Below, piece by piece: positions 7,768-61,416 of a DNA stretch of 64,000 bases. The first letter of the stretch is position 1; every line of letters starts with the position of its first letter. Both the position numbers and the translations under genes were made by a program. The notes under the pieces are model-generated. The model made no database searches and was not told where the DNA came from. It saw only the letters and a list, made by a program, of their open reading frames with translations. The stretch comes from a bacterium (GTDB lineage Bacteria > Joyebacterota > Joyebacteria > Joyebacterales > Joyebacteraceae): assembly GCA_025774245.1 (NCBI GenBank), contig JALGWI010000003.1, positions 14,866 to 78,865 of the forward strand. The letters are read 5' to 3'.

Positions 7768-7776
7768 CCGACCTCC

Positions 7777-9999: not shown

Positions 10000-11414
10000 G
10001 ATCCCCCGAATGCTTCGAGGATTGCCTTTCCCAGGAAGTCGTCGTCCGAAGGTGACACCGTGCGGAGATCGAGGATGATGCGGTCCTCCCTCGTGCGGAC
10101 GATCACGGGCGGAGAGACCTCGAGCAGATTCGCGACGATCGTCGCCGCCGAGACGCCCTTCGGAGCGATGTCCACGCCCCTGCTCGGGATCTCTCGCTCC
10201 GGTGCGGCTCCCCCGCCGACGCGCGACGTGATCTCCGTGACCGTGACGTCGGCCCGATCCCCCAGTCCGGCCGCGAGCGAACCGACCATCGCCTCCGCTC
10301 TCGCGGCGAGCTCGTCGACGGGCGTCGTGATCGCGGCGAGCACCGGCACCTTCTCGAGGGCGGTGCCGTCGAGGTAGTGAGTGAGCGTTGCCTGGAGGGC
10401 GGCGAGCGTCAGCTTGCCGGGACGGAGCGCGCGCGTGAGAGGGTTCGACCGCATCCGCGCGATCACGTCGACCGATCCGACGGCGATGCCGGCCTGAGGA
10501 CCTCCGAGCAGTTTGTCCCCGCTGAAGGTCGAGACCGTCGCGCCGGCCTTCACGCTCTCGGCGACCGTCATCTCCCCCGGGATTCCGAGCTGCGCCGTGT
10601 CCACGAGGATCCCGCTGCCGAGATCGTGGATGACCGGTACGCCGACCCGCGCGCCCAGCTCGGCGAGCTCGCGGAGCGAAACACGCTCGACGAAGCCGAC
10701 GATCTCGTAGTTGCTCCAGTGGGCCGACATGATCGCGCCGGTGCTGCTGCGGATGGCGGCTTCGAAGTCGGCGAGGTGGGTCCTGTTTGTGGAACCGACC
10801 TCGACCATCCTGCTTCCGCTCTTCTCGAACACCTCGGGCAGCCTGAACGATCCGCCGATCTCGATGAGCTCGCTCCTCGAGATCACGACCTCCCGTCCGA
10901 CGGCCAGCGTGTTGAGCGCCAGCATCACGGCGGCCGCGTTGTTGTTGACGACGAGCGCGTCCTCAGCGCCCGTAAGCTCGCAGAGGGCGTCCCGGACGAG
11001 GAGATCGCGCTTGCCGCGCCGGCCCTCGACAAGATCGTACTCCAGATTGGAGTAGGCGCGGGAGACGGCCGCGACGGCCTCGATGGCGTCCCCGGAGAGC
11101 GGCGCACGTCCGAGGTTGGTGTGGACGACGACACCCGTGGCGTTGACGACGGCCACGAGGTTTCGCATCGACGCGCGCTCCACCGCCCGTCCCAGGAGCT
11201 CGAGAATGGCCCGGCGGACCTCGGCCTCGGACCCCGTGCGTGGCTCCCTTCCGCCGAGAATGGCCCCGCGCTCTTCCTCGAGCGCTGCCCTGACGGCCCG
11301 CACGACCATGGACCTCGGGCGGCCGTCGAGAACCCCCTCCGCTTCAAGGTGTCGCACCGCCTCGTCGACCGAGGGGATGAATCTGAGATCGTCACGACCG
11401 GTCATGGCTGGCAC
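9996..11414 (-). CDS. selA: L-seryl-tRNA(Sec) selenium transferase
   Basis: VVNATGVVVHTNLGRAPL, VNNNAAAV, ELIEIGGSFRLP, FSGDKLLGGPQAG (PLP lysine). Confidence 0.95.
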   Translation of the reverse strand: MPAMTGRDDLRFIPSVDEAVRHLEAEGVLDGRPRSMVVRAVRAALEEERGAILGGREPRTGSEAEVRRAILELLGRAVERASMRNLVAVVNATGVVVHTNLGRAPLSGDAIEAVAAVSRAYSNLEYDLVEGRRGKRDLLVRDALCELTGAEDALVVNNNAAAVMLALNTLAVGREVVISRSELIEIGGSFRLPEVFEKSGSRMVEVGSTNRTHLADFEAAIRSSTGAIMSAHWSNYEIVGFVERVSLRELAELGARVGVPVIHDLGSGILVDTAQLGIPGEMTVAESVKAGATVSTFSGDKLLGGPQAGIAVGSVDVIARMRSNPLTRALRPGKLTLAALQATLTHYLDGTALEKVPVLAAITTPVDELAARAEAMVGSLAAGLGDRADVTVTEITSRVGGGAAPEREIPSRGVDIAPKGVSAATIVANLLEVSPPVIVRTREDRIILDLRTVSPSDDDFLGKAILEAFGGS

Positions 11415-23324: not shown

Positions 23325-24257
23325 CTAGATCTGCTCCGGGTTCCGCTGCACGTCTCGCGCGTCCTGAGGCGGACGCTCCTTTGTCACGATCCTGCACCCG
23401 GTGTCGATCGGCTCTGCGATATGTACCTGCCATTCGCGCCCTTGAAGCTCAGACGCGATCTTTGCCGCTTCCTCCCCTGTCGTCGTCAATCCCAGGACGG
23501 TCGGACCGCTCCCGCACATGAGAGCCGCGAGGACACCCAGCTCACTCAGCCGGTTCCTGACGCGTCCGACCTCCGGGTACGCCAACACGACACCAGCCTC
23601 CAGATCGTTCCTGAGGGCCCGAACGAGCGCCTCGGAATCGCCATTCTGGATAGCTGAACAATTGAGTCTAGTGAACCCTTCCCGACCTGTCAACCGGATT
23701 CTCGACTTCCGGTACGCCTCGGCAGCCGATACCTCGAACGGCGGGGTCACGAGGACGAACCAGAGGCCCGAAAGGGCCGGGAGCGGGTCGAGGATCTCCC
23801 CCCTGCCGCGGCCGCGGCTGGTGCCGCCCCGGATCAGGAACGGGACGTCGGAACCGATGTCGAGGGCGAGCGCCTCCAGATCGCTCAGGGCGAGCCCGAG
23901 CGCGAAAAGCTCGTTCATGCCCGCGAGAACCGCTGCCGCATCCGCGCTCCCGCCCCCGAGGCCGGCGCCGACGGGGATGCGCTTCGTGAGGTGGATCGAG
24001 GGAGCCGGGCATCCCTTCCTCTCCCTGAGAAGATCGGCCGCGCGGACAGCGAGATTCCTGGCGTCGGTCGGGACCGGGTGGCCGGCGGCGGTGAGGACGA
24101 CCGACGCCAGGGCCGTACCCGAATCGAGAACGACCGTGTCCGAGAGGGACACGGTCTGGAAGATCGTATCGATGTCGTGAAAGCCGTCCGGTCTCTTCGC
24201 GACGACCTCGAGGCCGAGGTTGACCTTCGCGTGGGCCTCGATCGTCACCGTGGCCAT
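23325..24257 (-). CDS. ispE: 4-(cytidine 5'-diphospho)-2-C-methyl-D-erythritol kinase
   Basis: AKVNLGL.V...[34 protein letters not shown]; start ATG 24257. Confidence 0.95.
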
Positions 24258-44328: not shown

Positions 44329-45300
44329 TCAGTGGACGCCCTCCTCGCCGTAGACCGCGACCCGGTTCTTGCCGGCCGCCTTCGCCTGGTAGAGGGCCTG
44401 GTCCGCGTGCTCCAGGAGTTCCCGCTTGCTCTCCGCCTGGGCCGGGAAGGTCGCGACGCCGACGCTGATCGTCAGGCGTCCGCCCGGAAGCGCCTCCTCG
44501 CCCTCGAAATCGGACTCGTCGATGAGGTTCCGGACGCGCTCCGCCATCCTCCTCGCGGAGTCGGGCTTCACCTCCGGCACGATGACCGCGAACTCCTCCC
44601 CTCCGTACCGCGCGACGAAATCGCAGTTGCGGGAGGAGCGCTTGAGGAGCCGCGCGAGCCTGCGGAGAATGAGGTCGCCGGCCGGGTGCCCGTGGGTGTC
44701 GTTGTATCGCTTGAAGTCGTCGATGTCGATCATGAGCAGACTCACGACCCTGCCGTAGCGCTCCGCGCGCGAGACCTCGGTGTCGAGGAGCTGGTGGAAG
44801 AAGCGGTGGTTGTAGAGCTCGGTCAGGCCGTCCTTCCGCGAGAGTTCCTTGTAGAACTCGCCCTCGGCCGCCCGCTTCCGGAGCACGCGCGCCTCCAGAG
44901 CGTTCGAGACGATGATCCTGATCTGGTCGATGTTGAACGGCTTCGTGATGTAGTCCGACGCTCCGAGCTTCATCGACTCCACGGCCGTCTCCATCGAGGC
45001 GTACCCGGTCATCACAACCACGGCCACCTCGTACGGCAGCCGCTTCGCCGCGGCGACGACCCCGAGCCCGTCGAGCTCCGGCATGACGATGTCGGTGATG
45101 ATGACGTCGTACTGGTCGACCTGCATCTTGTCGACGGCCTCGCGGCCCGAGCACGCGAGATCGATCGAGTACCCTTCCTCGCCGAGCACCTCCTTGAGGA
45201 ACTCGCGCATGATCTCCTCGTCGTCGACGATGAGAAGTCGCGCGACCTGGCGCTCCTCGGTCTCTTCGCTCTCGTGCTGGATGTGATCCGGCGTGATCAC
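44329..45300 (-). CDS. Response regulator diguanylate cyclase (REC-GGDEF)
   Basis: LIVDDE, TDIVMP, KP receiver motifs; DIDDFK.YND..GH..GD; RNCD I-site; RYGGEEF. Confidence 0.92.
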   Translation of the reverse strand: MITPDHIQHESEETEERQVARLLIVDDEEIMREFLKEVLGEEGYSIDLACSGREAVDKMQVDQYDVIITDIVMPELDGLGVVAAAKRLPYEVAVVVMTGYASMETAVESMKLGASDYITKPFNIDQIRIIVSNALEARVLRKRAAEGEFYKELSRKDGLTELYNHRFFHQLLDTEVSRAERYGRVVSLLMIDIDDFKRYNDTHGHPAGDLILRRLARLLKRSSRNCDFVARYGGEEFAVIVPEVKPDSARRMAERVRNLIDESDFEGEEALPGGRLTISVGVATFPAQAESKRELLEHADQALYQAKAAGKNRVAVYGEEGVH

Positions 45301-47459
45301 TGCAGTCCTCCGGAAATGCCCACCTCGACGCTGGCTTCGGCCAGCGGCAGCCGCACGGTGAAGGTTGTGCCTTCGCCGACGCTGCTCTCCACCTCGATCT
45401 GTCCCTCGTGGTCCTTGATGATGCCGTAGCTCACGGAGAGCCCGAGGCCCGTTCCCTCACCGGTCTCGCGCGTGGTGAAGAAGGGCTCGAACACCCTCGG
45501 GAGATCGTCTTCGCCGATGCCGCATCCCGAGTCCTCGAACGCAACCTCGAGGGTCTCGACGCCGTCCTCGTCCGCGGTGCGGAGCGTCCGCACCGTGAGC
45601 GTGTCGTCGGCGACCATCGCGTCGCGCGCGTTCATGATGATGTTCACGAAGACCTGCCTCAGCTGGTACGGGTCGCCCAGGACCGGAAGGCGCGAACTGT
45701 CGTAGTGCGTGTCGAGCCGGATGCCCCTTGTGGTGAGCTGCCTGCCCGTCACGCGTAGCGCCTCGCGCACCACGTCGTGGATGTCGATCTGGGAGTAGGC
45801 CGACTGCGAAGCCTGGGAGAACGTCAAGAGGCTCTGCACGATGCCCCGGCAGCGCTGCGAGGCCTTCTCGATCGAAGTCAGGTGCTTGATGAGCCGCTCC
45901 CACTCCTCGTCGGTCAGGTCCTGGCGGTCCATCTCGCGGACCTTCTCGAGCGTCAGCTGCGCGTAGCCGAGGATGCCGCCCAGGGGATTGTTGAGCTCGT
46001 GCGCAACGCCCGCGGCCATCTCGCCGACTGCCGCCAGCCGACCCGACTGCACGACCCTGGTCTGCATCTCCTGAAGCTCCTGCGTCCTGTCGGCGACACG
46101 CCCCTCCAGCTCGCTGTTCAGCCGCTCGAGCTCCGACCTCATCTCCTCGAGCTCCCGCGTGCGCTCCTCGACCTTCTCCTCGAGCTCTCTGTTCCACTCC
46201 TCGGCACTCGAACGCGACTTCTCGGCGCCCTCGTACATCTTCGCGTTGTCGATCGTGCGCGCCACCTGGTTCGCCAGCATCTGGAGGAGTTCCACCTGGG
46301 CGCGACCGAACGCGCGCGGCTCGGCGCTCTGGGCCGACAGCACGCCGATCAACCTCTCGCCCGACGTGAGCGGGATGCCGAGCCAGGTTCTCACGTACTC
46401 CCGTCGTCGCCGGGACTCCTCGAGTATCCAGTGGTCGAGCTTGCGTTCCTCGTCGCCTTCGGTGATGTCGTCGACGAGAAGCACCTCTCGCTTGCGGACC
46501 ACCCACCCCGTGAGTGTGTCTCCAGGCTTGGTCTTCCGCGGCGGCAGGCGTCGGTCCCCGGCTCCCCGGACGCGGTACTCGATCTCCTCGCTCTCCTCGT
46601 CGTAGAGGCACACGGCGAGCATCGAGGTTGCGAAGAGCTCCTGCGTGCTCTCCTCGAGGTGATCGACGAGCTCATCGAGTTTGAGCGTGGACGACAGGAG
46701 CTGCCCCACGGCGTTGATGGCCTTGAGCTCGGAGACGCGCTTCTCGAGCGACTCCTTCGTCTCCCAGAGTGTCTTCCCCGCGGCGCTCGACACAATGAGC
46801 ACGACCGCGAGGAGCGGGAAGGTCGTCGAGTCGCCCGGCATGTAGGCCGCCGCCAGGAGCAGGGCGAGCGGCAGCATCGCGATCTCGACGATGACGCCGG
46901 TCCCGCCGATCCACCGCGTGTAGCTCCTCAGCGAACGCCTCGGTTCCGCTCCGGAGACGGAGCGCACGATGACGCTCGTCGCGGCGAGCATCGCGAACAT
47001 ACCCACGAAGCGCGCGGCGTCCACGAACGTGACGCCGACCGATAGGAGCTTTCCTCCCGTGAGCACGTACGCGCAGCCCGCGGCGAAGACCGCGATCACC
47101 TGGACCCCGACCTCCCGGGCGAGCCGCTTCCGCCGGTGCCCGAAGCAGGCGAGTTCCACGGCGATCGTGCCGGCCGCGGTGACGATCAGCGCGACGTCCG
47201 TTCCGAAGAGCGCCACCGTGGCGATGAAGACCGCGGCGCTGAAGTTGACGTAGGTGTTCTTGCCGATCTGGAAGGCGAAGAGCCCGGTCGCCAGGGCGAG
47301 GGCGCTCATGATCCCGACGGCGCCCCAGTCGGTCCATTCGATCCCGTAGACCGCGATCGCGAGAAGGAGGACCGCGCCGGCTGGCGCCATCCACCAGATG
47401 TCCCTGCGGACGGCCGGGACGAGCGTTTCCTTCTCGGGTATTGCGTCAGTGGTCTGCAT
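45297..47459 (-). CDS. Membrane sensor histidine kinase (multi-TM N-domain, GAF, coiled coil, HisKA/HATPase)
   Basis: Hydrophobic N-terminus; GAF WLGIPL...IGVL; AHELNNPL H-box; N.IMNA.DA, DSG.GI, FEPFFTT, GTGLGL. Confidence 0.9.
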   Translation of the reverse strand: MQTTDAIPEKETLVPAVRRDIWWMAPAGAVLLLAIAVYGIEWTDWGAVGIMSALALATGLFAFQIGKNTYVNFSAAVFIATVALFGTDVALIVTAAGTIAVELACFGHRRKRLAREVGVQVIAVFAAGCAYVLTGGKLLSVGVTFVDAARFVGMFAMLAATSVIVRSVSGAEPRRSLRSYTRWIGGTGVIVEIAMLPLALLLAAAYMPGDSTTFPLLAVVLIVSSAAGKTLWETKESLEKRVSELKAINAVGQLLSSTLKLDELVDHLEESTQELFATSMLAVCLYDEESEEIEYRVRGAGDRRLPPRKTKPGDTLTGWVVRKREVLLVDDITEGDEERKLDHWILEESRRRREYVRTWLGIPLTSGERLIGVLSAQSAEPRAFGRAQVELLQMLANQVARTIDNAKMYEGAEKSRSSAEEWNRELEEKVEERTRELEEMRSELERLNSELEGRVADRTQELQEMQTRVVQSGRLAAVGEMAAGVAHELNNPLGGILGYAQLTLEKVREMDRQDLTDEEWERLIKHLTSIEKASQRCRGIVQSLLTFSQASQSAYSQIDIHDVVREALRVTGRQLTTRGIRLDTHYDSSRLPVLGDPYQLRQVFVNIIMNARDAMVADDTLTVRTLRTADEDGVETLEVAFEDSGCGIGEDDLPRVFEPFFTTRETGEGTGLGLSVSYGIIKDHEGQIEVESSVGEGTTFTVRLPLAEASVEVGISGGLQ

Positions 47460-47594
47460 GCTGCAACCCCCCGGGCCGCGACGTCGGGCCTCACGGCCCC
47501 CCGCGGCTTCGACCCCTGGACACCAGGGCAGGCTCGACCGCGGCCCCGGAGCCCCTGCGGCGTCCGGGCAGCGATCTCGCACGCGCGGGATAAA

Positions 47595-47767: not shown

Positions 47768-48658
47768 TCAGCGGGTGTCGTCCCCGGTTCCCGGGCTCCC
47801 GGGCTCCCGGTCGACATGCCGGGAACGCTCGGCCGTGACGATCTCCACGGTGAGCTCGACAGAGCCTCCGGGCACGTCGAGCCCGGAGAGGACGAGCGAG
47901 TTCGTGCCTCCGCCGAGCTTCCAGGGTCCGAACCTCCCCTCGCGGTCGACCGACTCCGGTCCGCGCCGCCCGTCGCACGTAACGAGCGAGACGGAGACGC
48001 CTCGCGCGGGCGACCCCTCGAGGATGACGCGGCCGACGAGCGACGGTGCGCCCGCGGCGATCTCGATCCTGCCGTCGAAACCGAGCCCGCCCTCGTCCGC
48101 CCAGGCCAGCCTGTGGGAAGGCGCAGCTCCCCTGGCGAGCGCGGGCCTGAGCTCCTCGCCGGCTCCGAGGCCGGCTCGCACGGCGGCCGCCTGGGAGCGC
48201 GCGAAGTCCCGCGCGACCGAGAGAGCTCTCTCGGTCAGGCGGACCACGGCGGTTCTCCCCTCCGCCTCGAGCCGGGCGAGCGCCGACCGGACGACGCGCT
48301 CCGGCGCGTCCGCCTCCTCCTCCCCCGCGAGGCTCCTGAGATCCGCCACCTCCGCCAGGCACGCTCCGCACGATGCCAGGTGCTCCTCGACCGACGCGAC
48401 GACTCGCTCGTCGGCGCTGCCGTCGGCGTAGGCCGCGAGGGCTTCCGCCTCCGGGCAGCCCGGCGACCGCGCGGGCGGCGCGTTCGATGCATCGCGGAGA
48501 ATAGACGTCACGCGCTCGATCTCGGCCAGGCGCGCGGCGCACCGACCGCACGACGCGACGTGCTCGCGCACGGTCCGTCCGGACTCGTCGTCGAGCGCAT
48601 CCGCCGCGAACGCCAGGAGCGCCGCATTCTCGGGACACGTCCCGCTCATGTTGTTCAC
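47768..48658 (-). CDS. Soluble anti-sigma factor with two zf-HC2 (ZAS) motifs and a C-terminal beta-sandwich-like domain
   Basis: CP...L..F..D.L......HVASCGRC and CP....L..Y.DG......HLASCGAC; no TM helix; start overlaps the sigma stop. Confidence 0.8.
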   Translation of the reverse strand: MNNMSGTCPENAALLAFAADALDDESGRTVREHVASCGRCAARLAEIERVTSILRDASNAPPARSPGCPEAEALAAYADGSADERVVASVEEHLASCGACLAEVADLRSLAGEEEADAPERVVRSALARLEAEGRTAVVRLTERALSVARDFARSQAAAVRAGLGAGEELRPALARGAAPSHRLAWADEGGLGFDGRIEIAAGAPSLVGRVILEGSPARGVSVSLVTCDGRRGPESVDREGRFGPWKLGGGTNSLVLSGLDVPGGSVELTVEIVTAERSRHVDREPGSPGTGDDTR

Positions 48659-49269
48659 CTCTCTTCCCAGTAGCGGCTGACTCCGCTCTCCTGCCGGAGC
48701 TTCGCGAGCGCCCGGAAGACGAGACCGCTCATGGCCCCGACCGACGTCCCGAGCTGCTCGGCGACCTCGCGGTACGTGAACCCCTCGAAGTAGATGAGCT
48801 TCACGACCACGGCCTCCCTCGATGAGAGCGCGCGCGCGATCGCCTGTTCGAGCGACATCCGGAGATCGCGGTTCCCGATGCGTTCGGGCGATCCGGTCCC
48901 GCCGGCCTTCGGCTCTTCCCTGTTCTCCTCGACCTCATCGCACTCCCGCCTCCGCGACCGCTTCCTGAGCGAATCGATGCAGACGTTCCTGACGATCCTG
49001 TAGATCCACGTCTCGAGCTTGCAGTCGCCCTTCCAGGTCGCGAGCGCTCGCCCGTTGCGCCGGAGGAATTTGTAGATCGCCTCCTCGAAGATCTCCTCCA
49101 TCGCCGTCTCGTCCCAATCGGCGTCGAAGCGCGCGTTCGCCCGGACGATGGCGCTGTAGATGAGCTTCCGGTAGCGGGTGACGAACTCCGCCCACGTATC
49201 GGAATCGCCGGCCCGGAGTCGCTCGATCATCCGGGCGACGTCGGCATCGATCTTCCCTCGAGTCGCCAA
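48655..49269 (-). CDS. ECF sigma-70 family RNA polymerase sigma factor
   Basis: Region 2 TWIYRIVRN.CID.LRK; region 4 L...E..V..L.YFEG.TY.EVA..LG.S...RAL.KLR; TTG start with RBS. Confidence 0.92.
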   Translation of the reverse strand: MATRGKIDADVARMIERLRAGDSDTWAEFVTRYRKLIYSAIVRANARFDADWDETAMEEIFEEAIYKFLRRNGRALATWKGDCKLETWIYRIVRNVCIDSLRKRSRRRECDEVEENREEPKAGGTGSPERIGNRDLRMSLEQAIARALSSREAVVVKLIYFEGFTYREVAEQLGTSVGAMSGLVFRALAKLRQESGVSRYWEER

Positions 49270-49290
49270 GACGGGTACCCCTCTTCCTGT

Positions 49291-49318
49291 CCAACGGTCG
49301 TCCGACGGGGGCGTTTTC
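49291..49318 (-). promoter_or_regulatory. Candidate ECF-type autoregulatory promoter
   Basis: Minus strand GAAAAC-16 nt-CGTTGG (AAC/CGT ECF signature) 22 bp upstream of the sigma start. Confidence 0.5.
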
Positions 49319-49329
49319 TTCGCGCGAAC

Positions 49330-50847
49330 TCAGGGTCGATTCGGAACGGCCCCGGGGCTCGCGAGGTTCAGGGCGGGATCGCCATAGAGGACGTAGTTCG
49401 CCCAGGTGATCGGGTGGGCGCCGAGGAGTGCTGCGCGGGCGGCCGTCACGGCCCCGCCGAGCGTCGCGCCGCCGGCCAGCTCGCGGTAGAACGCCCTCGC
49501 GAACGAGGCGCTCCCCGCGTCGTGGAGCTCCCACAGCGTACCGAGGTACGCGGGGACGCCCCACCGGAGGAACTGCCGCGCCGTGTCGGCCGACCCGCTC
49601 TCCTCCAGCCCGGTGTCCGCGCCGGACCCGCAGGAGTTCGCGAAGACGAGAAGCGGGGGCACGTCCGGCCTCGAGCCGAGGTCGTCGGGCGAGACGGCCT
49701 CGCCGTCGCCGAGCACCCAGCCGGTCCTGCCTTCCGTGTGGGACGTGTGGCTCGCGAAGTGAACGACGTCGAACCCCTCCGTCAGAAGGAGCTTCAGTTC
49801 CCGCGCGCTTCGCGGGGACTTGCGCTCCGCGCGAAGGAGGTCGGGTCGTTCGGCCGCGAGGTCGAGAAGGAGCGCCGCTTCGCGCTCCGCGTCCGGCAGC
49901 TCGCGCCCGGGGCTGCCGGCCTCGAGGTTCGCGAGGAGCAGCAGCCGCAGCGGGCCGGGCCTCCGTGAACGATTCGGTGGCGCTCCGAGCTCGTCGCGGA
50001 TCTGTCGCGACGTGTTGAACAGCTGCCAGAGGAACTGGCCGCCGGGGCGCGGCACCATGAGTTCCCAGGGGAACCGGGCGAGCTCGGGCTGGAGCCTGAG
50101 CAGCAGGTGGTCGCCCGGAAGATCCGCGATGCGGCCGCGGGCCTCGGAGTCCTCGCCGAGAAGCGCGTCGCCGAGCCCGACGCCGAGCGAGTAGACGCGC
50201 CGCTGCCAATCGGCGATCTCGTCGCGACCGGGCGCGGCGGCCCCGAACGCGAGGGAGCGTCGGGCGAGTTCGTCGAACGCCGTCAGGATCGCCGCCTCGG
50301 CCTCGGGGTTGCGCGCGCTGACGAAATCGCGGCCGCTGGCCCCGCGCGAATCGGCGATCATCGCCGTGAGCTTCCCCGGCGGCTCCGCGCGCAGGTGCAC
50401 GTCGGGCGTCATCGCCGCCCGGAGGGGCTGCGCCCGCTCCATTCCCCGCCATCGCCAGACGACGAGGGCGACGGCGAGCGCCAGGAGTGCGCCGAGCCAC
50501 GCCGGATGGAGGAAGGCCTCGAAGACGGCCGCGGCGCCGTGATAGACGGCGCGGTAGATCGCCGATCGGCCGCCGTAGGGAATGCTCCTGAGGGCGCCCC
50601 AGAGAACGACGAGAGCGGCGACGATCCAGAGGAGAGGGACGGCCGCCCTCGGGGATCGCGACCGCGCGCCCGCCGAACCCGCGCCGACCGACCCCGCGCG
50701 GTTCCCGGCTGAGTCCGCCGTCGTCTCGAACCGTCCGCCGCAGGCCTCGCAGCGTACCGTTCGGCGGACCGTCCGGTCCGTCCCGCTCCAGCGTTCCTCT
50801 TCGGTCGCGAGCTTCCCACCGCAGCGCGGGCAGGCTTCACGCTTCAC
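49330..50847 (-). CDS. CHAT-domain (caspase HetF-associated) protease with N-terminal Zn ribbon and TM helices
   Basis: CPRC...CEAC; hydrophobic segments; LARFPWELM, L..AE.EA, VVHFASH, VFANSC, F...GV..YLGTLW, F...FY..L..G..LG.AV..AR, WANYVLYGDP. Confidence 0.85.
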   Translation of the reverse strand: MKREACPRCGGKLATEEERWSGTDRTVRRTVRCEACGGRFETTADSAGNRAGSVGAGSAGARSRSPRAAVPLLWIVAALVVLWGALRSIPYGGRSAIYRAVYHGAAAVFEAFLHPAWLGALLALAVALVVWRWRGMERAQPLRAAMTPDVHLRAEPPGKLTAMIADSRGASGRDFVSARNPEAEAAILTAFDELARRSLAFGAAAPGRDEIADWQRRVYSLGVGLGDALLGEDSEARGRIADLPGDHLLLRLQPELARFPWELMVPRPGGQFLWQLFNTSRQIRDELGAPPNRSRRPGPLRLLLLANLEAGSPGRELPDAEREAALLLDLAAERPDLLRAERKSPRSARELKLLLTEGFDVVHFASHTSHTEGRTGWVLGDGEAVSPDDLGSRPDVPPLLVFANSCGSGADTGLEESGSADTARQFLRWGVPAYLGTLWELHDAGSASFARAFYRELAGGATLGGAVTAARAALLGAHPITWANYVLYGDPALNLASPGAVPNRP

Positions 50848-50896
50848 GGATTCCCTCCGTCGGCTCGGCGCTCACCCGGCGGGCGCGCCGTGCGTG

Positions 50897-53101
50897 TCAC
50901 ACGGGCGGCAGCTCGATGACGCTGTCCGCCAGATCGGCTCCGTGCTTCTCACACGCGAGGACGATCACCTGCCGCTCCCTCGAGATCTCCCGCAGGAGTT
51001 CGAGCGCGGCGCGGCGCCGCTCGGGATCGCAGTTCACGAGCACGTCGTCCAGGATAAACGGCGACCCGTCCGAGCCCCCGAGGAACATCAGGAGCGCGTA
51101 GCGCGTCGCGAGGTACAGCTGGTCGACGGTCCCGACGCTCAGATCGGCGGCGTCGAGCGCCGGCGATCCCGCGGGCGTGACGGGAGTCGCCGCCGAACCG
51201 CTCCCGGCCGGCACGCTCCCGGCCGGCACACTTCCAGCGGCGGAAGCAGTGGAGACTGGAACAGAGACCGGCCTCGCGACGGAGACGCTGAGGTCGTCCC
51301 CCACCGTCACCTCGGAGTAGCGGCCCAGCGTGAGCGTCGAGAAGACCCTCCCGACGACGGGCTCGATCGCGGAGGAGGCTTCCTCCTTCGTGCTCGAGAG
51401 CGCCGACTCGATGCCGTCGCGCGCGAGGCGCAGGATCCGTTCGCGGACGGCAAGCGCGTCGAGCTCGCCACGGACGGCTTCGAGGCGCGCCTCGAGATCG
51501 GGCAGGGAGTCGCCGGACGCGGACTGCTCGAGACGGATCTCCGCGCGCTTCACGGTCTCCGACAGGCGGGCGACGGTCTCCCGGAGCTCGACGCCTCTGG
51601 TGCGAAGCGCGGCGATCTCCGTTGCCGAGAGCACGGTCGCCTCGCCTCCCGTATCCTCGAGGATCTCCTCGAACCCCTTCAGCCTGCGCTCGAGCGCGGT
51701 CGACTCGACCAGGAGATCCTCCTCGTACCGATCGGGCCCGACGTCCCCGACGATGCCGGAAAGGAAGTCGGTCTTCCGTGCGACCTCCTTCTGGGTCTCG
51801 TCGTTGGCGGCCCGTGTCTGCTCGAACGCCTCCCAGGTCGCCGCTCCCACGGCGGCGAGCACCTCCCGGAGCGATGCCTCGTTCCGCTCGCGCGCGGCCT
51901 CCTCGCGCCTCACGTCGTGGGCGAACGCCCAGAGGCGCGTCGTCCTCCGGAAGAGCAGGATCGCCGCGACGGCTGCCGCCGCGCCCGCCGCGATGAGCCA
52001 CACGCGGAGCGCGGGCGAGATCGGCGCGAAGATCGGCGTGAAGATGAGGGCGAGCGCGGCCGCGCCCGCCACGATCGCGATCGCTCCGGAGCGCCGGCCA
52101 GCGTTCTGCCACTCGCCTCGCGGAGCTCGCTCCGCGAGCACGCCGATCCTCCGCTTCGACTCGTCGACGGCGGCCTTGGCTTCGACGACCGGCATCTCCT
52201 TCTCCGGTGCCGTGCGGGGGATCCTCTCCCACGCGGCGGCGAGGTCGGAGCGGAGCTTCCGGACGCGCGCGATCTGGGTCTCCTTCTCCGTCAGCGCCTT
52301 CCTGACCTCGTCGAGACCCTCACCGCTCTCGCGGCGTTTCTCCTCCACCTCGAGGGTGCGCTCGATCCTCCCCAGCTCCTCCGCCGCGGACGCGAGCTCG
52401 TCGCGCTCCTTCTCGAGTCCGCTCCGCGTTCGGAGAAGCTCGTTCCACCCTCGGCCGGCCTCGTCGATCCGACGCTCGAGATCCGTCTCCGAGTCGGTGA
52501 GCGTCCTGAGCCGGCCGGCATTCTTCGCCGGGCGGTCGAAGCCCCGCCGCATCGCGGCGATCTCCCGCTCGATCCTGGCGACGACGCCTGCCGCGTCGAC
52601 GGCGCCGCTCGCGCTCGTCATCTTGCGCTCGATCATGGGCACGAGTTCGCCCCGCCTGCTCTGCCCCGCGCGGCCCTCGAGGACCGCCAGCTCGCCCTGC
52701 CGAACGGCGGCGACCGATTGGAAGGCGTCCCGCGTGGCGAAGCCGAGGACCTCTCGGATGCGTTCGTCGATCCTGTTCTTGTCGGCCACGACCGTGGACT
52801 GCGTCAGATCGGTGAGCTCCCCGCGGCCGGCGCCGAAGTCCTTTGTGAGCCTCTCGAGCGCGCCCTCGTGCTCGAAGTCGAGCTCGAGCCGCATCGCGCT
52901 CGTCGATCCCCACCTCTCGAGCCCGAGGACCGTCTGCGCCTTCGATGCTGCGTCGCAGAAGAGGACGGTCGCGATCGCATCGACCACCGTGCTCTTGCCG
53001 GACTCGTTCGACCCGACGATAAGATTGAGGCCGGGCTCGAGGAGGATCTCGAAGTCCGCGAACCTCCTGAAGTTCACGAGTCTGAGGCGTCGGATTCTCA
53101 C
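50897..53101 (-). CDS. YhaN/SbcE-like SMC/Rad50-type AAA ATPase with an internal TM hairpin
   Basis: GTG 53101 VRIRRLRLVNF; G.NESGKST; coiled coils; central hydrophobic pair; LSVGT..QLYLA.R and ILDD. Confidence 0.85.
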   Translation of the reverse strand: MRIRRLRLVNFRRFADFEILLEPGLNLIVGSNESGKSTVVDAIATVLFCDAASKAQTVLGLERWGSTSAMRLELDFEHEGALERLTKDFGAGRGELTDLTQSTVVADKNRIDERIREVLGFATRDAFQSVAAVRQGELAVLEGRAGQSRRGELVPMIERKMTSASGAVDAAGVVARIEREIAAMRRGFDRPAKNAGRLRTLTDSETDLERRIDEAGRGWNELLRTRSGLEKERDELASAAEELGRIERTLEVEEKRRESGEGLDEVRKALTEKETQIARVRKLRSDLAAAWERIPRTAPEKEMPVVEAKAAVDESKRRIGVLAERAPRGEWQNAGRRSGAIAIVAGAAALALIFTPIFAPISPALRVWLIAAGAAAAVAAILLFRRTTRLWAFAHDVRREEAARERNEASLREVLAAVGAATWEAFEQTRAANDETQKEVARKTDFLSGIVGDVGPDRYEEDLLVESTALERRLKGFEEILEDTGGEATVLSATEIAALRTRGVELRETVARLSETVKRAEIRLEQSASGDSLPDLEARLEAVRGELDALAVRERILRLARDGIESALSSTKEEASSAIEPVVGRVFSTLTLGRYSEVTVGDDLSVSVARPVSVPVSTASAAGSVPAGSVPAGSGSAATPVTPAGSPALDAADLSVGTVDQLYLATRYALLMFLGGSDGSPFILDDVLVNCDPERRRAALELLREISRERQVIVLACEKHGADLADSVIELPPV
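51200..51229. repeat. 15-bp tandem duplication in a low-complexity insertion of the ATPase
   Basis: (gctcccggccggcac)x2 encoding VPAGS VPAGS. Confidence 0.8.
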
Positions 53102-54240
53102 CCGAGCACGTCCTTTCCCTGAAGGAGGGCGACCCCGAGCTGGAGGGCGTCCTCGATCTCCCTTCGCTCCCCTTCGCCGCCCGCCTCCTCGAGCCTCGCC
53201 TTCATGCGGCGCGCGAAGCGCCCGACGACGAGCCGCTCGGGCAGCGCGCGGAGTTCGTCCTCCCCGAGCCGCACGTGGTAGTCGCGATCCGCCAGGGAGA
53301 CGTGGAAGTAGAGCGGCGCGAGCGCCTCGAGGAGCGCGTCGGGCGAAAAGCCGGAGTCGACCTCGACGAGGCCGTTCAGCGTGAGCCGCACGATCGCATC
53401 GCCGTTCGGCGCCACCGCCGCCACCACCCGCTCCTCGACGTCCTTCGTTCCGGCAGCGCCCGTGACGTCGAGGGCTCTCTCCTCGATCGTCCGCGTGCCC
53501 ACGCGCTCCTTCCGGACGGTCGCGGCGCCGTGCGAGAGCTCCACGACGGCGACGTGGCCGGCGCCCGTCTGGTCGATCGCGACGACCTCGGGAGCGCCGG
53601 GGTAGACGGCCGGTACGGCCGTGCCCTCGATCTCGCGCCACGAGTGCCAGTGCCCGAGCGCGAAGTAGCACCAGCCGGCGGTCCGGAGCTCGAGGAGATC
53701 GATCGGGTGGTCGTCGGGAGCGACCGGGACGACGTTGACCGAGCCGTGCGCGACGGCGACGTTGAACGGGAGGGCAGGATTCGGCTCGAGGCCGGCGAGC
53801 TGGTGCGAGGCCGAACGGTTCGAACGCGGCGGGGTGCCGCGGACCGAGATCCCCGACTCGGGGAGATCGACGCTCGTCCTGTCGTCGAGTCCGAGGACGG
53901 TGAGCCCCGGCGCCCGCGAGAACTCCGTGCGGTAGGCGGAGTAGATCGAGCCCGTGCCGAGGAAGTCGTGCGATCCCGGCAGGACCACGACCGCGCCTTT
54001 GGACGACTCGGTGAGCCGGGTGAGCTCTCGGATCGCGAAGCGGACCTCGGACGCCGGCGGCGTGTTCGAGTCGAAGAGATCGCCCGCGACGAGAAGGCAG
54101 TCGGCCTTTCGGTCGAGGGCGACGTCGACGATCGAGCTCATCGCCCGCCTGAGCTCGCCCCGCTGGTCGGCCGCCCTGTCGCCGAGCCAGCCGAGGGGCG
54201 CGCCGAGGTGGATGTCCGCCGTGTGAATCAGTGTGGGCAT
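53098..54240 (-). CDS. YhaO/SbcD/Mre11-like metallophosphoesterase (DNA repair exonuclease)
   Basis: HTADIHLG, AGDLFD, LPGSHD, AHG, ALGHWH, YPG; stop overlaps the ATPase start (GTGA). Confidence 0.88.
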   Translation of the reverse strand: MPTLIHTADIHLGAPLGWLGDRAADQRGELRRAMSSIVDVALDRKADCLLVAGDLFDSNTPPASEVRFAIRELTRLTESSKGAVVVLPGSHDFLGTGSIYSAYRTEFSRAPGLTVLGLDDRTSVDLPESGISVRGTPPRSNRSASHQLAGLEPNPALPFNVAVAHGSVNVVPVAPDDHPIDLLELRTAGWCYFALGHWHSWREIEGTAVPAVYPGAPEVVAIDQTGAGHVAVVELSHGAATVRKERVGTRTIEERALDVTGAAGTKDVEERVVAAVAPNGDAIVRLTLNGLVEVDSGFSPDALLEALAPLYFHVSLADRDYHVRLGEDELRALPERLVVGRFARRMKARLEEAGGEGERREIEDALQLGVALLQGKDVLG

Positions 54241-54275
54241 GCGACCTCCCGCCGGGAAGTGTGCGTCACGCTGAC

Positions 54276-54304
54276 ATCGTAGGTGCGCCCGGGCGACAAG
54301 TCAA
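54276..54304 (-). promoter_or_regulatory. sigma70-type promoter for the nuclease-ATPase(-CHAT) unit
   Basis: TTGACT-17 nt-TACGAT 36 bp upstream of ATG 54240. Confidence 0.6.
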
Positions 54305-54462: not shown

Positions 54463-55686
54463 CTACTCCTCGTCCATCCAGTCGGCGATCTCCTCCCACG
54501 CCAGATTGGTCATGCCCGGCGTGACGTCGCTAAACGTCGGGTCCGGGAAGTCGATCGGCCTCACGACGTCCGGCTCGTCCGGGTTCGGCCACGTGAGCTC
54601 GGGGAGGTAGTCCGTGATCGGGTCGAGCGGGTCCATGAAGAACTCCTCGACGTCGAGCGTGATCACGACCGCGGGCGCTCCGGGCTCGAGCTCCGCGAGA
54701 TCGATCTCCGCCTGCTCGTGCAGCGCCTCGTCGATCATGTCCGCGTAGAACCTGAGGGAGTCGACAGACCCCTCTCCGAACATGTCGTCGAGCACGATGT
54801 ACATGCCGTCGGACTCCGTGATGAGATCGAACGTCTGAGGTCCGGTCTCGCTCTGGAGCTCGTCGCACGCTTCGTTCACGTGGACGACCATGTCGTCCAG
54901 CTCTCCGAAGGCCGCCTGCAGGTGGTTGCCGGGCCTCAGAGTGAGGAAGTCGGGATCGTCCTCGAGCAGTTCCTGCAGCGTCTGGCCGTCGGCCCAGTCC
55001 ACGTTGTAGGCAACCGTCATCTCGAAGACCGCCTGCAGCACGTCGAGCGGTGCGTGGGCGAAGTAGGCGTCGGTCGCGTCGAGCACGACCGTGATCGTCT
55101 CGCGCTCCTCCTCCGGAATCTCGATGACGAGCTCGACCTCGCAGTCGAGGTCCTCGAAGTCCGTGAGGTTCGCGTCGACGTAGTTGAGCGCCGGAATCAC
55201 CTCGTCCTCGATGTACTCCTGAAGCTGCGAGAACGGGAAGTCGTCGCGCTGCCGCTCCTGAAGGCTCTTCGCGATCTCGAGCGCGTCACGGACGTCAGGC
55301 ATGCCGAGGTACCAGAAGAGCGGCGACCGGCCCCTCTGCTGCCACTCGTCCTCGAAGAGATCGTTCAGGATGTCCGCGAGGTCCGGGTCGGTGATGACGA
55401 CCAGGAGCCTTGAAAGCGACGCCAGCAGAAGCGCGCCGCAGTGGTCGGGGTCGGCGTCCAGGGCGTCCTCGAAGTGCTCGTAGGCGCTCGAAGCATCGAC
55501 CTCCCACTCCCACGGGGGCAAGTCCGGGTCGACGTTCTGCATCCCGTCCTCGAGCTCCTGGAAGCCCAGAGCGAAGTGCTCGTCGGCCGACTGAGCGCTC
55601 GTGCCGTCCTCGGTGGAGCACCCGGCCAGGAGCCCAACGACGATCGCACAGACGGCGCCGAGCGCCGCGAATCGCAAGATCTTCAT
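54463..55686 (-). CDS. Acidic lipoprotein of unknown function
   Basis: MKILRFAALGAVCAIVVGLLAGC lipobox; RBS aaggagg; very D/E-rich; TPR-like start. Confidence 0.75.
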   Translation of the reverse strand: MKILRFAALGAVCAIVVGLLAGCSTEDGTSAQSADEHFALGFQELEDGMQNVDPDLPPWEWEVDASSAYEHFEDALDADPDHCGALLLASLSRLLVVITDPDLADILNDLFEDEWQQRGRSPLFWYLGMPDVRDALEIAKSLQERQRDDFPFSQLQEYIEDEVIPALNYVDANLTDFEDLDCEVELVIEIPEEERETITVVLDATDAYFAHAPLDVLQAVFEMTVAYNVDWADGQTLQELLEDDPDFLTLRPGNHLQAAFGELDDMVVHVNEACDELQSETGPQTFDLITESDGMYIVLDDMFGEGSVDSLRFYADMIDEALHEQAEIDLAELEPGAPAVVITLDVEEFFMDPLDPITDYLPELTWPNPDEPDVVRPIDFPDPTFSDVTPGMTNLAWEEIADWMDEE

Positions 55687-55732
55687 CCTCTTCCTCCTTG
55701 TGTCTGAAGCCGCATCAATCCCTGCAGAACGA

Positions 55733-55782
55733 TGCAATCTCCGTGCCGCCGCCACGGTATGTCCGCCTCTCCCGTGTGTCAA
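55733..55782 (-). promoter_or_regulatory. Tandem sigma70-type and sigma54-like promoters for the lipoprotein
   Basis: TTGACA-17-TACCGT (55782-55754) and CGGCACGGAGATTGCA (55748-55733). Confidence 0.5.
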
Positions 55783-55825
55783 CAGCAATGAGAAGCGCTC
55801 CCCTCGTGCAAGCGGGAGCGCTTGA

Positions 55826-55903
55826 TGGTACGCCCAGGAGGACTCGAACCCCCAACCTTCTGATCCGTAGTCAGATGCTCTATCCAAATTGAGCTATGGG
55901 CGC
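55826..55903 (-). tRNA. tRNA-Arg (anticodon ACG)
   Basis: gcgcccatagctcaatttggatagagcatctga-ct-acg-ga-tcaga...ggttcgagtcc...acca. Confidence 0.95.
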
Positions 55904-60585: not shown

Positions 60586-61416
60586 CTATTCCTCAGGGGT
60601 GCTGGGGGCGCTGGGAATGCTCTCGACTCTGAGCGACACGATCTTGTCGGGCTCGGCGACGGCGCCGTTATCGGCCTGGTCGCCCTTCTTGATCGAGTCG
60701 ATGACGTCCATGCCCTCGACGACCTGGCCGAAGGCCGCGTACTTGCCGTCCAGGTGCGTCGCGCTGGCCAGCATGATGAAGAACTGGCTTCCCCCGGAGT
60801 CCGGGTCGTTCGAGCGAGCCATCGAGACCACGCCCTTCACGTGATTGAGGTCGGCGTTGAACTCGGCCGGGATCGTGTAGCCAGGGCCGCCGAAGCCGCC
60901 CTTGTGCTCGACGTCGCCGGTCTGAGCCATGAACCCGTCGATGACGCGATGGAACTCGACGCCGTCGTACCGGCCGCTGTTGGCCAGGTAGGCGAAGTTC
61001 ACGACCGTGTTCGGGGCTCTGTCCTCCCAGAGCTCGATCGTGACGGTCCCCTTCTCGGTCACGAGGATCGCGACCTTGTTCCCCTCGGGCAGGTAGGGAA
61101 CCTCCATGGTCTTCTTGGCACCCGTCGCGCCGCCCTTCTCGTCGCTTTCGAAGTAGGTCAGAGTGGCTGTCACCGGCTTGGCCTCCTCTGCGGTATCCGA
61201 GGCCTCCTCAGTCGGAGCCTCCTCTGCGGTATCCGAGGCCTCCTCAGTCGGAGCCTCCTCTTCGGTGGCTGCTGCCTTCTCCTCCGGAGCGGCCTTGTCG
61301 ACCGTCTCCCCCTTCTCGCTCGAAAGCCCGGGGTCGCCCGACTGCGAGAACGCCGGCACCGCGAGCGCCAGTAAGACGAGTGCTACCGCGACAGGAAAAC
61401 ACGTACGCGAACGCAT
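60586..61416 (-). CDS. Exported cyclophilin-type peptidyl-prolyl isomerase
   Basis: Signal peptide; AP.TV.NF, FHRVIDGFMAQ.GD, GPGY, SMAR...DSGGSQFFI, HLDGKY..FGQV. Confidence 0.92.
   Translation of the reverse strand: MRSRTCFPVAVALVLLALAVPAFSQSGDPGLSSEKGETVDKAAPEEKAAATEEEAPTEEASDTAEEAPTEEASDTAEEAKPVTATLTYFESDEKGGATGAKKTMEVPYLPEGNKVAILVTEKGTVTIELWEDRAPNTVVNFAYLANSGRYDGVEFHRVIDGFMAQTGDVEHKGGFGGPGYTIPAEFNADLNHVKGVVSMARSNDPDSGGSQFFIMLASATHLDGKYAAFGQVVEGMDVIDSIKKGDQADNGAVAEPDKIVSLRVESIPSAPSTPEE
61181..61260. repeat. 36-bp tandem repeat (about 2.2 copies) in the cyclophilin acidic linker
   Basis: gcctcctctgcggtatccgaggcctcctcagtcgga x2 plus a partial copy; encodes EEAPTEEASDTA. Confidence 0.9.

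Follow-up and report, generated by a model that had tools for sequence, protein, structure and literature searches.

A recurrent trio of CHAT protease, ECF sigma factor and soluble ZAS anti-sigma factor beside an SbcEF-like gene pair in Eisenbacteria

Results

Gene content of the locus

The window (the whole 64,000-nucleotide stretch of contig JALGWI010000003.1 analysed here) carries, between positions 47768 and 54304, five minus-strand genes whose third-position GC content of 0.88–0.92 is of the coding type. Searches with Pfam, NCBIfam and PADLOC profiles identified them as an SbcD-like nuclease, a YhaN-like ATPase, a membrane protein with a CHAT protease domain, a sigma factor of the extracytoplasmic function (ECF) type and a soluble anti-sigma factor with two zinc-binding anti-sigma (ZAS) domains. 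The last three genes, here called the trio, are a real unit and belong to a widespread family that is experimentally uncharacterised. The features of the locus, in minus-strand order, are:

54304–54276, minus: sigma70-like site, TTGACT-17-TACGAT, upstream of the SbcD-like gene (1 site against 0.1 expected from shuffles)
54240–53098, minus: SbcD/Mre11-like (YhaO/SbcF-like) metallophosphoesterase, 380 aa (Metallophos, 31.6 bits; cut-off 21.5)
53101–50897, minus: YhaN/SbcE-like SMC-type ATPase, 734 aa (AAA_23, AAA_27, SMC_N)
50847–49330, minus: zinc-ribbon, two-transmembrane-helix CHAT protease, 505 aa (PF12770, 95.5 bits; cut-off 24; residues 241–490)
49749–49747 and 49632–49630, minus: codons of CHAT residues H367 and C406, respectively
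49323–49297, minus: ECF-type bipartite motif GCGAAGAA-N14-ACGAC in the CHAT–sigma gap, a putative promoter
49269–48655, minus: ECF sigma factor, 204 aa (TIGR02937, 95.1 bits; cut-off 42.9)
48658–47768, minus: soluble double-ZAS anti-sigma factor, 296 aa (two zf-HC2 stretches)
48133–48131, minus: codon of anti-sigma Arg176, an invariant linker residue and the proposed P1 residue of a putative cleavage site

From the nuclease gene to the anti-sigma gene the intergenic gaps are −4, 49, 60 and −4 bp. The GTG start codon of the ATPase overlaps the stop codon of the nuclease as GTGA, and this start could be fixed because the out-of-frame extension upstream of it has a third-position GC content of only 0.45. 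An initial annotation, made from the letters alone, had described five co-oriented genes with small gaps or overlaps, and the coding-type composition, the profile matches and the spacings all agree with that description. The locus comprises two separable modules: module A, the nuclease/ATPase pair (54240–50897), and module B, the trio (50847–47768).

The sigma factor contains only regions sigma-2 and sigma-4 (Sigma70_r2, 25.9 bits, cut-off 24; Sigma70_r4_2, 44.1 bits, cut-off 25.7). A Pfam family search of the genome returned three CHAT genes, that of the trio scoring 97.5 bits against PF12770; the contigs of the other two, C28 and C94, gave no match to the ECF or anti-sigma hidden Markov models (HMMs).

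The trio is lost as a unit within a vertically inherited region

The names of close homologues assign the window genome to Candidatus Eisenbacteria. We use Eisenbacteria for this phylum, of which the sample comprised 31 genomes of one family. A CHAT orthologue was found in 30 of these genomes. The five genes stand in the same order in 17 of 20 Eisenbacteria loci, the other three being cut by contig ends. Around them, some 20 kb is syntenic on both flanks across the family, and the genes there are of housekeeping or common signalling kinds: dnaX and recR, the gene of a TadA-like deaminase, those of a GAF histidine kinase and a REC-GGDEF regulator, and others for an MA-type peptidase, for a class-V aminotransferase and for TPR proteins. 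The locus is a vertically inherited core region and not a mobile island. Because the whole region is syntenic by vertical inheritance, linkage within the family is no independent evidence of function. These housekeeping flanks and this mode of inheritance, together with a PADLOC scan of the window proteins that gave only generic ATPase and CHAT matches, lend no support to the defence framing of the initial annotation.

One relative separates the two modules. In genome G003, which is 100% complete, the locus retains the SbcD gene, the YhaN-like ATPase gene and the histidine kinase gene, and the CHAT, sigma and anti-sigma genes are all missing. In a tree of six concatenated proteins, which had midpoint rooting and no outgroup, G003 falls inside the family, and deletion of the trio is therefore favoured over its gain; 16 of 22 taxa were kept in this tree, six having been dropped for covering less than 60% of the columns, and its support values were not read. 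Under a loss or a gain alike, the three genes behave as one unit, and the nuclease/ATPase pair can do without them.

Recurrence of the trio outside the phylum

A scan of GTDB with the CHAT alignment as query, using one genome per species, returned 79 loci, 55 of them outside Eisenbacteria. The closest of the 55 by tblastn E-value, locus L134 from a Nitrospirae metagenome-assembled genome (MAG), encodes in a row an ECF sigma factor, a soluble zf-HC2 anti-sigma factor with a beta-rich C-terminus, and a CHAT protein in which a cytoplasmic CHAT domain is followed by a transmembrane (TM) helix, a DUF4384 domain and a trypsin-like domain. It is the only one of the 55 loci matched by an anti-sigma HMM built from 18 Eisenbacteria rows. 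Six Leptospira species (L093, L094, L097, L098, L100 and L121; about 5990–10234) have a looser form of the trio in a conserved cluster of four genes, whose products are a sigma-like protein of 305 aa, a protein of 245 aa with a weak CarboxypepD_reg-like C-terminus, a CHAT protein of 606 aa and a 238-aa protein of unassigned family. At 16 further loci of CHAT relatives, the 40 neighbouring proteins scanned included neither a sigma factor nor a zf-HC2 protein; only a subset of CHAT proteins thus shows the association.

We also scanned metagenomes with the Nitrospirae-type CHAT sequence as seed, which gave 78 loci. Where at least 1500 nt were available upstream of the CHAT match (n = 52), 48 loci have an ECF sigma gene and an anti-sigma gene directly upstream on the same strand; three of the remaining four have the anti-sigma gene only, and one, encoding a CHASE2-CHAT protein, has neither. 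The HMM built from Eisenbacteria sequences alone recognises 50 of these 52 loci, and among loci with 800–1499 nt upstream an anti-sigma gene was present in 11 of 12. Several lineages are involved, since GC content spans 0.34 to 0.64 among 17 sampled loci.

The CHAT partners outside the phylum carry varied sensor parts, including DUF4384 domains, TPR arrays, a nucleotide cyclase with a CsgG-like domain, and CHASE2. Two of the metagenomic genes (L168, 4248–7622; L186, 4248–7472) encode an N-terminal adenylate/guanylate cyclase followed by C-terminal TPR and CsgG-like parts, an architecture that suggests a coupling of nucleotide signalling to the trio. A second large TPR-CHAT gene often follows the first directly (L134, 7086–10505; L163, 6939–10241; L167, 7184–10135; L170, 6851–9316), which hints at a two-protease arrangement.

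No SbcD- or Rad50-like gene was found at any of the 55 GTDB loci outside Eisenbacteria, one marginal match to a 65-aa open reading frame (E = 0.0019) being discounted, or at any of the 78 metagenome loci. A conserved linkage of YhaNO to the CHAT and sigma genes in relatives, for which the initial annotation had proposed a neighbourhood survey, thus finds no support in these counts or in the trio-free pair of G003.

The CHAT protease is predicted to be a membrane-held cytoplasmic enzyme

The AlphaFold2 (AF2) model of the CHAT protein (predicted local distance difference test, pLDDT, 79.6) places a zinc ribbon (C6, C9, C33, C36) ahead of two helices (69–88 and 115–139) that are separated by a conserved 27-residue loop. 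A small alpha+beta unit of three strands and a helix follows at 149–199, ahead of the CHAT fold itself. Basic residues flank the two TM helices on their inner side, and we infer an in-out-in hairpin that would leave the CHAT domain in the cytoplasm. The proposal that protease and ATPase are both membrane-tethered fits this hairpin, modelled for the CHAT protein, as well as that of the ATPase described below.

All of 17 sequences share residues H363, H367 and C406, and the corresponding His, His and Cys are likewise invariant in a cross-phylum alignment of Eisenbacteria, the Nitrospirae MAG, Leptospira and Desulfobacteraceae. We take H367 to be the catalytic histidine on the basis of the HxxGH motif. 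Judged by these residues, the protease looks active.

A search of PDB sequences with the CHAT profile gave no match at E values up to 0.01. Foldseek returned 49 PDB matches for the model at E ≤ 0.001, the best being Csx29 and separase (both E = 1.5e-10), DdvA (E = 1.5e-7) and SAVED-CHAT; separase–securin complexes are also among the nearest folds.

A soluble anti-sigma factor with one invariant linker arginine

ZAS anti-sigma factors sequester their sigma factors through the ZAS domains. In the window protein the two CHCC sets, ZAS1 (C8, H33, C37, C40) and ZAS2 (C68, H93, C97, C100), are both invariant in 14 of 14 sequences. Its AF2 model comprises two three-helix bundles (pLDDT > 90), a low-confidence linker at 113–177 and a confident beta-sandwich at 181–273. 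No TM helix was seen in this model, and a 19-residue window of hydrophobicity above 1.6 occurs in only two of 58 family anti-sigmas. Given the 4-bp overlap of the two genes and what is known of the family, the protein presumably binds and inhibits the window sigma factor.

The anti-sigma profile matches RsiW (E = 3.3e-6), the N-terminus of DdvA (E = 6.1e-5; at ZAS2), RslA and ChrR. A Csx30 chain is absent among its 18 PDB matches at E values up to 1. Foldseek with the whole model gave nothing at E ≤ 0.001; the best match was ChrR (E = 0.015) and the rest were generic immunoglobulin-like sandwiches. The ESM Atlas lists zf-HC2 clusters of about 285 aa in other phyla.

We aligned 64 family anti-sigmas (the window protein, six from Eisenbacteria, one from the Nitrospirae MAG and 56 metagenomic sequences). 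ZAS2 is universal in this alignment, with H93 kept in 98% and C97 and C100 in 100% of the sequences; ZAS1 is essentially an Eisenbacteria addition (occupancy 0.10–0.20). R176 is identical in 64 of 64, within a linker that is otherwise variable and modelled at low confidence. The predicted succession of ZAS bundles, loose linker and beta-sandwich, with the invariant R176, would suit cleavage in the linker.

Predicted docking of the anti-sigma factor on the CHAT domain

A multimer model of the CHAT/anti-sigma pair had been proposed in the initial annotation. Using CHAT residues 140–505 and the anti-sigma factor, with our own alignments and three controls, we obtained a complex score of 0.64, against 0.00 for the best control. 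Of 157 solved complexes, 116 attain the mark set for this score, and 2 of 215 mismatched pairs do so too; these counts are only a rough guide here, since we supplied the alignments ourselves. At least 80% of contacts are shared between the runs, and the pLDDT of the partner is at least 70. In the modelled interface, CHAT residues 304–344 and 380 face anti-sigma residues 219–236 and 258–265 of the beta-sandwich, including a GPES loop that is invariant in Eisenbacteria and aligns with a family-wide RE.AS motif. The model lends support to docking on CHAT by way of the beta-sandwich. Part of the score could stem from likeness to the solved Craspase–Csx30 complex, though the anti-sigma factor has no sequence similarity to Csx30.

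Promoter-like motifs

The initial annotation had placed all five genes downstream of one sigma70-like promoter. The site is present at 54304–54276, and its form TTGAC-N17-TAsGAT is kept upstream of sbcD in three genera (g1, g5 and g6), but a second motif, of ECF type, lies inside the CHAT–sigma gap. All 21 Eisenbacteria loci carry the pattern GCGAAGAR-N14-RCGWC at this position, without conservation in its spacer. The pattern begins 50–55 nt upstream of the start codon of the sigma gene and stops about 27 nt short of it, and is the sole conserved occurrence per locus (7–18 kb examined in each). A single simple transcription unit of five genes is therefore unlikely. The motif may be a promoter at which the ECF factor regulates its own gene. 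Under this reading the CHAT gene would lie outside the autoregulated unit and may be read through from the genes upstream.

Several further occurrences bear on these motifs. A second exact match to GCGAAGAR-N13-15-RCGWC lies in the window at 24174–24200 on the minus strand, and genus g5 (L036–L039) has an extra copy of the motif inside the sigma coding region, kept in four of four loci. One site that fits a relaxed form of the pattern precedes a sugar nucleotidyl transferase/hexapeptide gene. No shared promoter motif was seen upstream of the sigma genes across 46 metagenome loci. A sigma54-like element, GGCA(C/T)-N5-(C/T)TG(C/A), stands before the sbcD-like gene in 12 of 19 loci with enough upstream sequence (g3, g4 and g8), and the promoter type of this orthologous operon seems to vary with the genus.

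The nuclease/ATPase pair

The SbcD-like protein scores 67.6 bits against TIGR00619, below the cut-off. The ATPase scores 46.2 bits (cut-off 22) against AAA_27, the YhaN-type Pfam family, and far under the cut-offs of the NCBIfam equivalogs for Rad50 and SbcC. A central hairpin of two hydrophobic helices (about residues 337–384) keeps its character in 21 of 21 orthologues, in line with the initial description of a YhaN-like ATPase with a TM hairpin; a CxxC hook was not found in the sequence. By tblastn, this is the only SbcCD/Mre11-Rad50-like pair in the genome.

In Bacillus subtilis, SbcE (YhaN) is described as an SMC-like protein with a hydrophobic central domain and no CxxC, adjoining the SbcD-like nuclease SbcF (YhaO), and SbcE is credited with roles in double-strand-break repair and competence (PMC2811018). 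The window pair is similar in that its ATPase has a hydrophobic centre, has no CxxC and lies next to an SbcD-like nuclease, a likeness that is confined to the ATPase head and the overall layout; unlike the B. subtilis pair, it is not followed by a yhaM-like gene. By analogy, module A is probably a membrane-associated DNA-end processing complex such as SbcEF.

Neighbouring features of the window

Directly upstream of the five genes, at 54463–55887 on the minus strand, lies the gene of a 474-aa protein with no Pfam, NCBIfam or PADLOC match. It is syntenic in most Eisenbacteria loci, and tblastn did not find it in the g5 loci L036–L038. Directly downstream of the anti-sigma gene, a GAF-HisKA-HATPase histidine kinase and a REC-GGDEF response regulator are encoded at 44329–47582, again on the minus strand; in G003 the kinase gene comes directly after that of the ATPase. 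A tandem repeat of 2.4 copies of a 36-nt unit (98% matches) lies at 61181–61266, in a coding-dense stretch.

Discussion

A proposed protease-gated sigma switch

We consider it probable, with room for real doubt, that the trio is a protease-gated ECF switch in which the protease cuts the anti-sigma linker and so frees the sigma factor. The CHAT protease would be held at the membrane by its N-terminal zinc ribbon and TM hairpin, with the catalytic domain in the cytoplasm, while the soluble anti-sigma factor sequesters the ECF sigma factor through its ZAS domains and docks on the CHAT domain, as modelled, through its C-terminal beta-sandwich. A signal might be sensed by the conserved 27-residue loop between the CHAT TM helices. 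The protease would then cut the linker, which is modelled as flexible, most likely after the invariant Arg176. Degradation of the N-terminal anti-sigma fragment would finally free the sigma factor for its own putative GCGAAGAA-N14-CGAC promoter and for further targets.

The initial annotation had proposed that the CHAT protease cleaves the TM-less anti-sigma factor to release the sigma factor. Co-loss of the trio, its recurrence across lineages and the complex model favour this idea, which stands as a proposal. Several findings weigh against the switch as drawn here. No anti-sigma residue lies at H367 or C406 in the complex model, so that the docking is that of an exosite and not of a substrate in the active site, and by hand count about 30% of the interface is invariant or nearly so, against about 27% of the CHAT domain overall. 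The 245-aa middle protein of the Leptospira cluster lacks a ZAS motif and shows no significant likeness to the anti-sigma factor (hhalign E = 0.19). The metagenome loci carry no taxonomy and are not independent, as they include near-duplicates (e.g., L164/L165, L170/L171 and L227/L228), and a quick CHAT tree joins Eisenbacteria, L134 and Leptospira at one unresolved node, so that a single origin is not shown. Nor do genome searches define a regulon: GCGAAGAR-N13-15-RCGWC matched 26 times and its reversed control 12 times, and the relaxed pattern gave only five intergenic sites with a downstream gene. Furthermore, ZAS domains can release sigma factors by thiol oxidation, for which no protease is needed.

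This last point leads to the strongest competing account, in which the beta-sandwich binds the CHAT domain and remains uncut. The pair would then be a split anti-sigma factor with CHAT as its membrane sensor, or the anti-sigma factor would act as a securin-like inhibitor of a protease that has other substrates, and the sigma factor would be freed by conformational change or by thiol oxidation of the ZAS domains. The modelled docking away from H367 and C406 is in keeping with such an arrangement, as are the separase–securin complexes among the nearest folds. Both CHCC sets are moreover invariant and the profile resembles ChrR-type ZAS domains; domains of the RsrA/ChrR type can be redox switches. 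We nevertheless regard this account as unlikely. The catalytic dyad is invariant in 17 orthologues and in the cross-phylum alignment, which argues for selection on protease activity within the trio, and a fully conserved arginine in a variable linker fits a processing site better than a tether segment. Separase and gingipain R, relatives in clan CD, cut after arginine, which also counts against an uncut linker.

The initial annotation had gone further and made YhaN/YhaO the sensor of DNA ends or foreign DNA that activates the CHAT protease, all five genes forming one damage/defence-to-transcription module. Wherever the contig reaches in Eisenbacteria, the trio does lie directly downstream of YhaN (17 of 20 loci complete); the YhaN–CHAT gap is at most 4 bp, or an overlap, in three of 19 loci (L021, L034 and L035), which suggests co-transcription there, and the ATPase and the CHAT protein are both membrane-anchored. 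Against this, G003 keeps the SbcD–YhaN pair without the trio, SbcD/Rad50-like genes were found at none of the 55 GTDB loci outside Eisenbacteria and none of the 78 metagenome loci, and the CHAT proteins of other lineages bring sensor modules of their own (DUF4384, TPR, cyclase domain, CHASE2). The 20-kb synteny means that the adjacency is inherited and not independently selected, and the flanks are those of a housekeeping region and not of a defence island. A role of YhaNO as general trigger is accordingly improbable, and the caveat attached to the proposal, that the link may be simple adjacency, is the part that stands. The SbcD-like and YhaN-like genes are probably neighbours and not part of the switch. 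A narrower version, in which the trio switch has been set under a membrane SbcEF (YhaNO) complex in Eisenbacteria alone, so that DNA breaks or incoming DNA would lead to Arg176 cleavage and transcription, draws on adjacency, occasional overlap and shared membrane location within this lineage and finds no support outside it; we hold it to be just as doubtful.

The separate promoter-like motif between CHAT and sigma, and the 16 CHAT-relative loci with no such partner among the neighbours scanned, might suggest that CHAT and the sigma/anti-sigma pair lie side by side with no link in function. This is very hard to credit, given that the trio is lost together in G003, that 48 of 52 metagenome loci and the Nitrospirae and Leptospira loci keep the three kinds of gene despite varied orders and sensors, and that the complex model passes its controls.

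Relation to known systems

The protease-gated switch proposed here has a close described parallel in Craspase, where the TPR-CHAT protease Csx29 is reported to cleave Csx30, a sigma-binding inhibitor of two domains joined by a flexible linker, in a system with an ECF sigma factor (PMC10028731; bioRxiv 10.1101/2022.08.17.504292). Like the Csx29–Csx30–RpoE arm, the window has a CHAT protease (with Csx29 as its best Foldseek match), a linker-bearing inhibitor and an ECF sigma factor. Unlike type III-E Craspase, it has no CRISPR-like array in the window and no match to Cas7-11 or another Cas protein among the 15 window proteins scanned, the rest of the genome lying outside that cas scan. The CHAT protein gave no TPR match and has a zinc ribbon and TM hairpin instead, and the inhibitor is a classical ZAS anti-sigma factor and not a Csx30 relative.

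In Myxococcus xanthus DdvA–DdvS, a transmembrane ZAS anti-sigma factor with a periplasmic TPR-CHAT part is described, and CHAT-mediated cleavage has been proposed (PMC11506125). Both systems bring an ECF sigma factor into one regulatory unit with ZAS (CHCC-type) and CHAT domains. The window differs from DdvA in dividing ZAS and CHAT between two proteins, in a predicted cytoplasmic location of CHAT, in having no TPR and in a context that is not a CBASS/CRISPR island. As the window anti-sigma factor is soluble, no RseP-type intramembrane step would be needed, unlike for DdvA.

The EACC2-caspase systems, a computational prediction, are described as having a constant alpha+beta unit before a caspase-fold protease, with an ECF sigma factor nearby and with sensor regions that vary, trypsin-like peptidases, CHASE2 and TM segments among them; the main text names a DUF1822 TPR protein as partner and uses the term "anti-sigma" zero times (PMC8195603). 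The metagenomic CHAT relatives resemble these systems in the kinds of variable modules that they carry and in their ECF neighbour, and the three-strand-plus-helix unit at 149–199 of the window CHAT model might correspond to the constant unit, as compared by description only. DUF1822 was not found among the locus, flank and relative-neighbourhood proteins scanned. The variable part is N-terminal in Eisenbacteria (zinc ribbon plus TM hairpin), unlike in the EACC2 systems, and the gene order differs; when the CHAT protein was aligned by hhalign with its Nitrospirae and Leptospira counterparts, only the CHAT part aligned. The trio family may overlap the EACC2-caspase/ECF family of Kaur, Iyer, Burroughs and Aravind (eLife 2021).

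A similar tripartite unit of protease, anti-sigma factor and ECF-like sigma factor is described for type III CRISPR as CalpL–CalpT–CalpS, in which the SAVED-Lon protease CalpL is reported to be soluble (bioRxiv 10.1101/2024.05.08.593097). The window protease differs from CalpL in being of the CHAT type and not a Lon with a SAVED sensor activated by CRISPR cyclic oligoadenylate, and no such genes occur here. The main text of the ECF reclassification paper contains the words "CHAT" and "caspase" zero times (PMC7826278). In the literature, we found no experimental study of a CRISPR-independent trio of CHAT protease, soluble ZAS anti-sigma factor and ECF sigma factor.

Significance

The data point to a large family of stand-alone ECF/soluble ZAS anti-sigma/CHAT trios across many lineages, whose recurring features are interchangeable sensor modules, a docking beta-sandwich on the anti-sigma factor and one invariant linker arginine. 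Among the central themes of bacterial signalling is the regulated proteolysis of anti-sigma factors. To our knowledge, Craspase of CRISPR type III-E and the fused protein DdvA are so far the only cases in which CHAT proteases have been linked to sigma factors. Should the doubtful coupling to SbcEF hold in Eisenbacteria, the locus would be a CRISPR-independent counterpart of the Csx29–Csx30–RpoE arm of Craspase, placed under a DNA-end machine. If the protease-gated mechanism itself is true, the trio would provide one-step cytoplasmic activation of ECF sigma factors that dispenses with a site-1/site-2 cascade, would give a context for the acquisition of transcriptional output by Craspase, and would offer compact, orthogonal protease-gated switches for synthetic biology.

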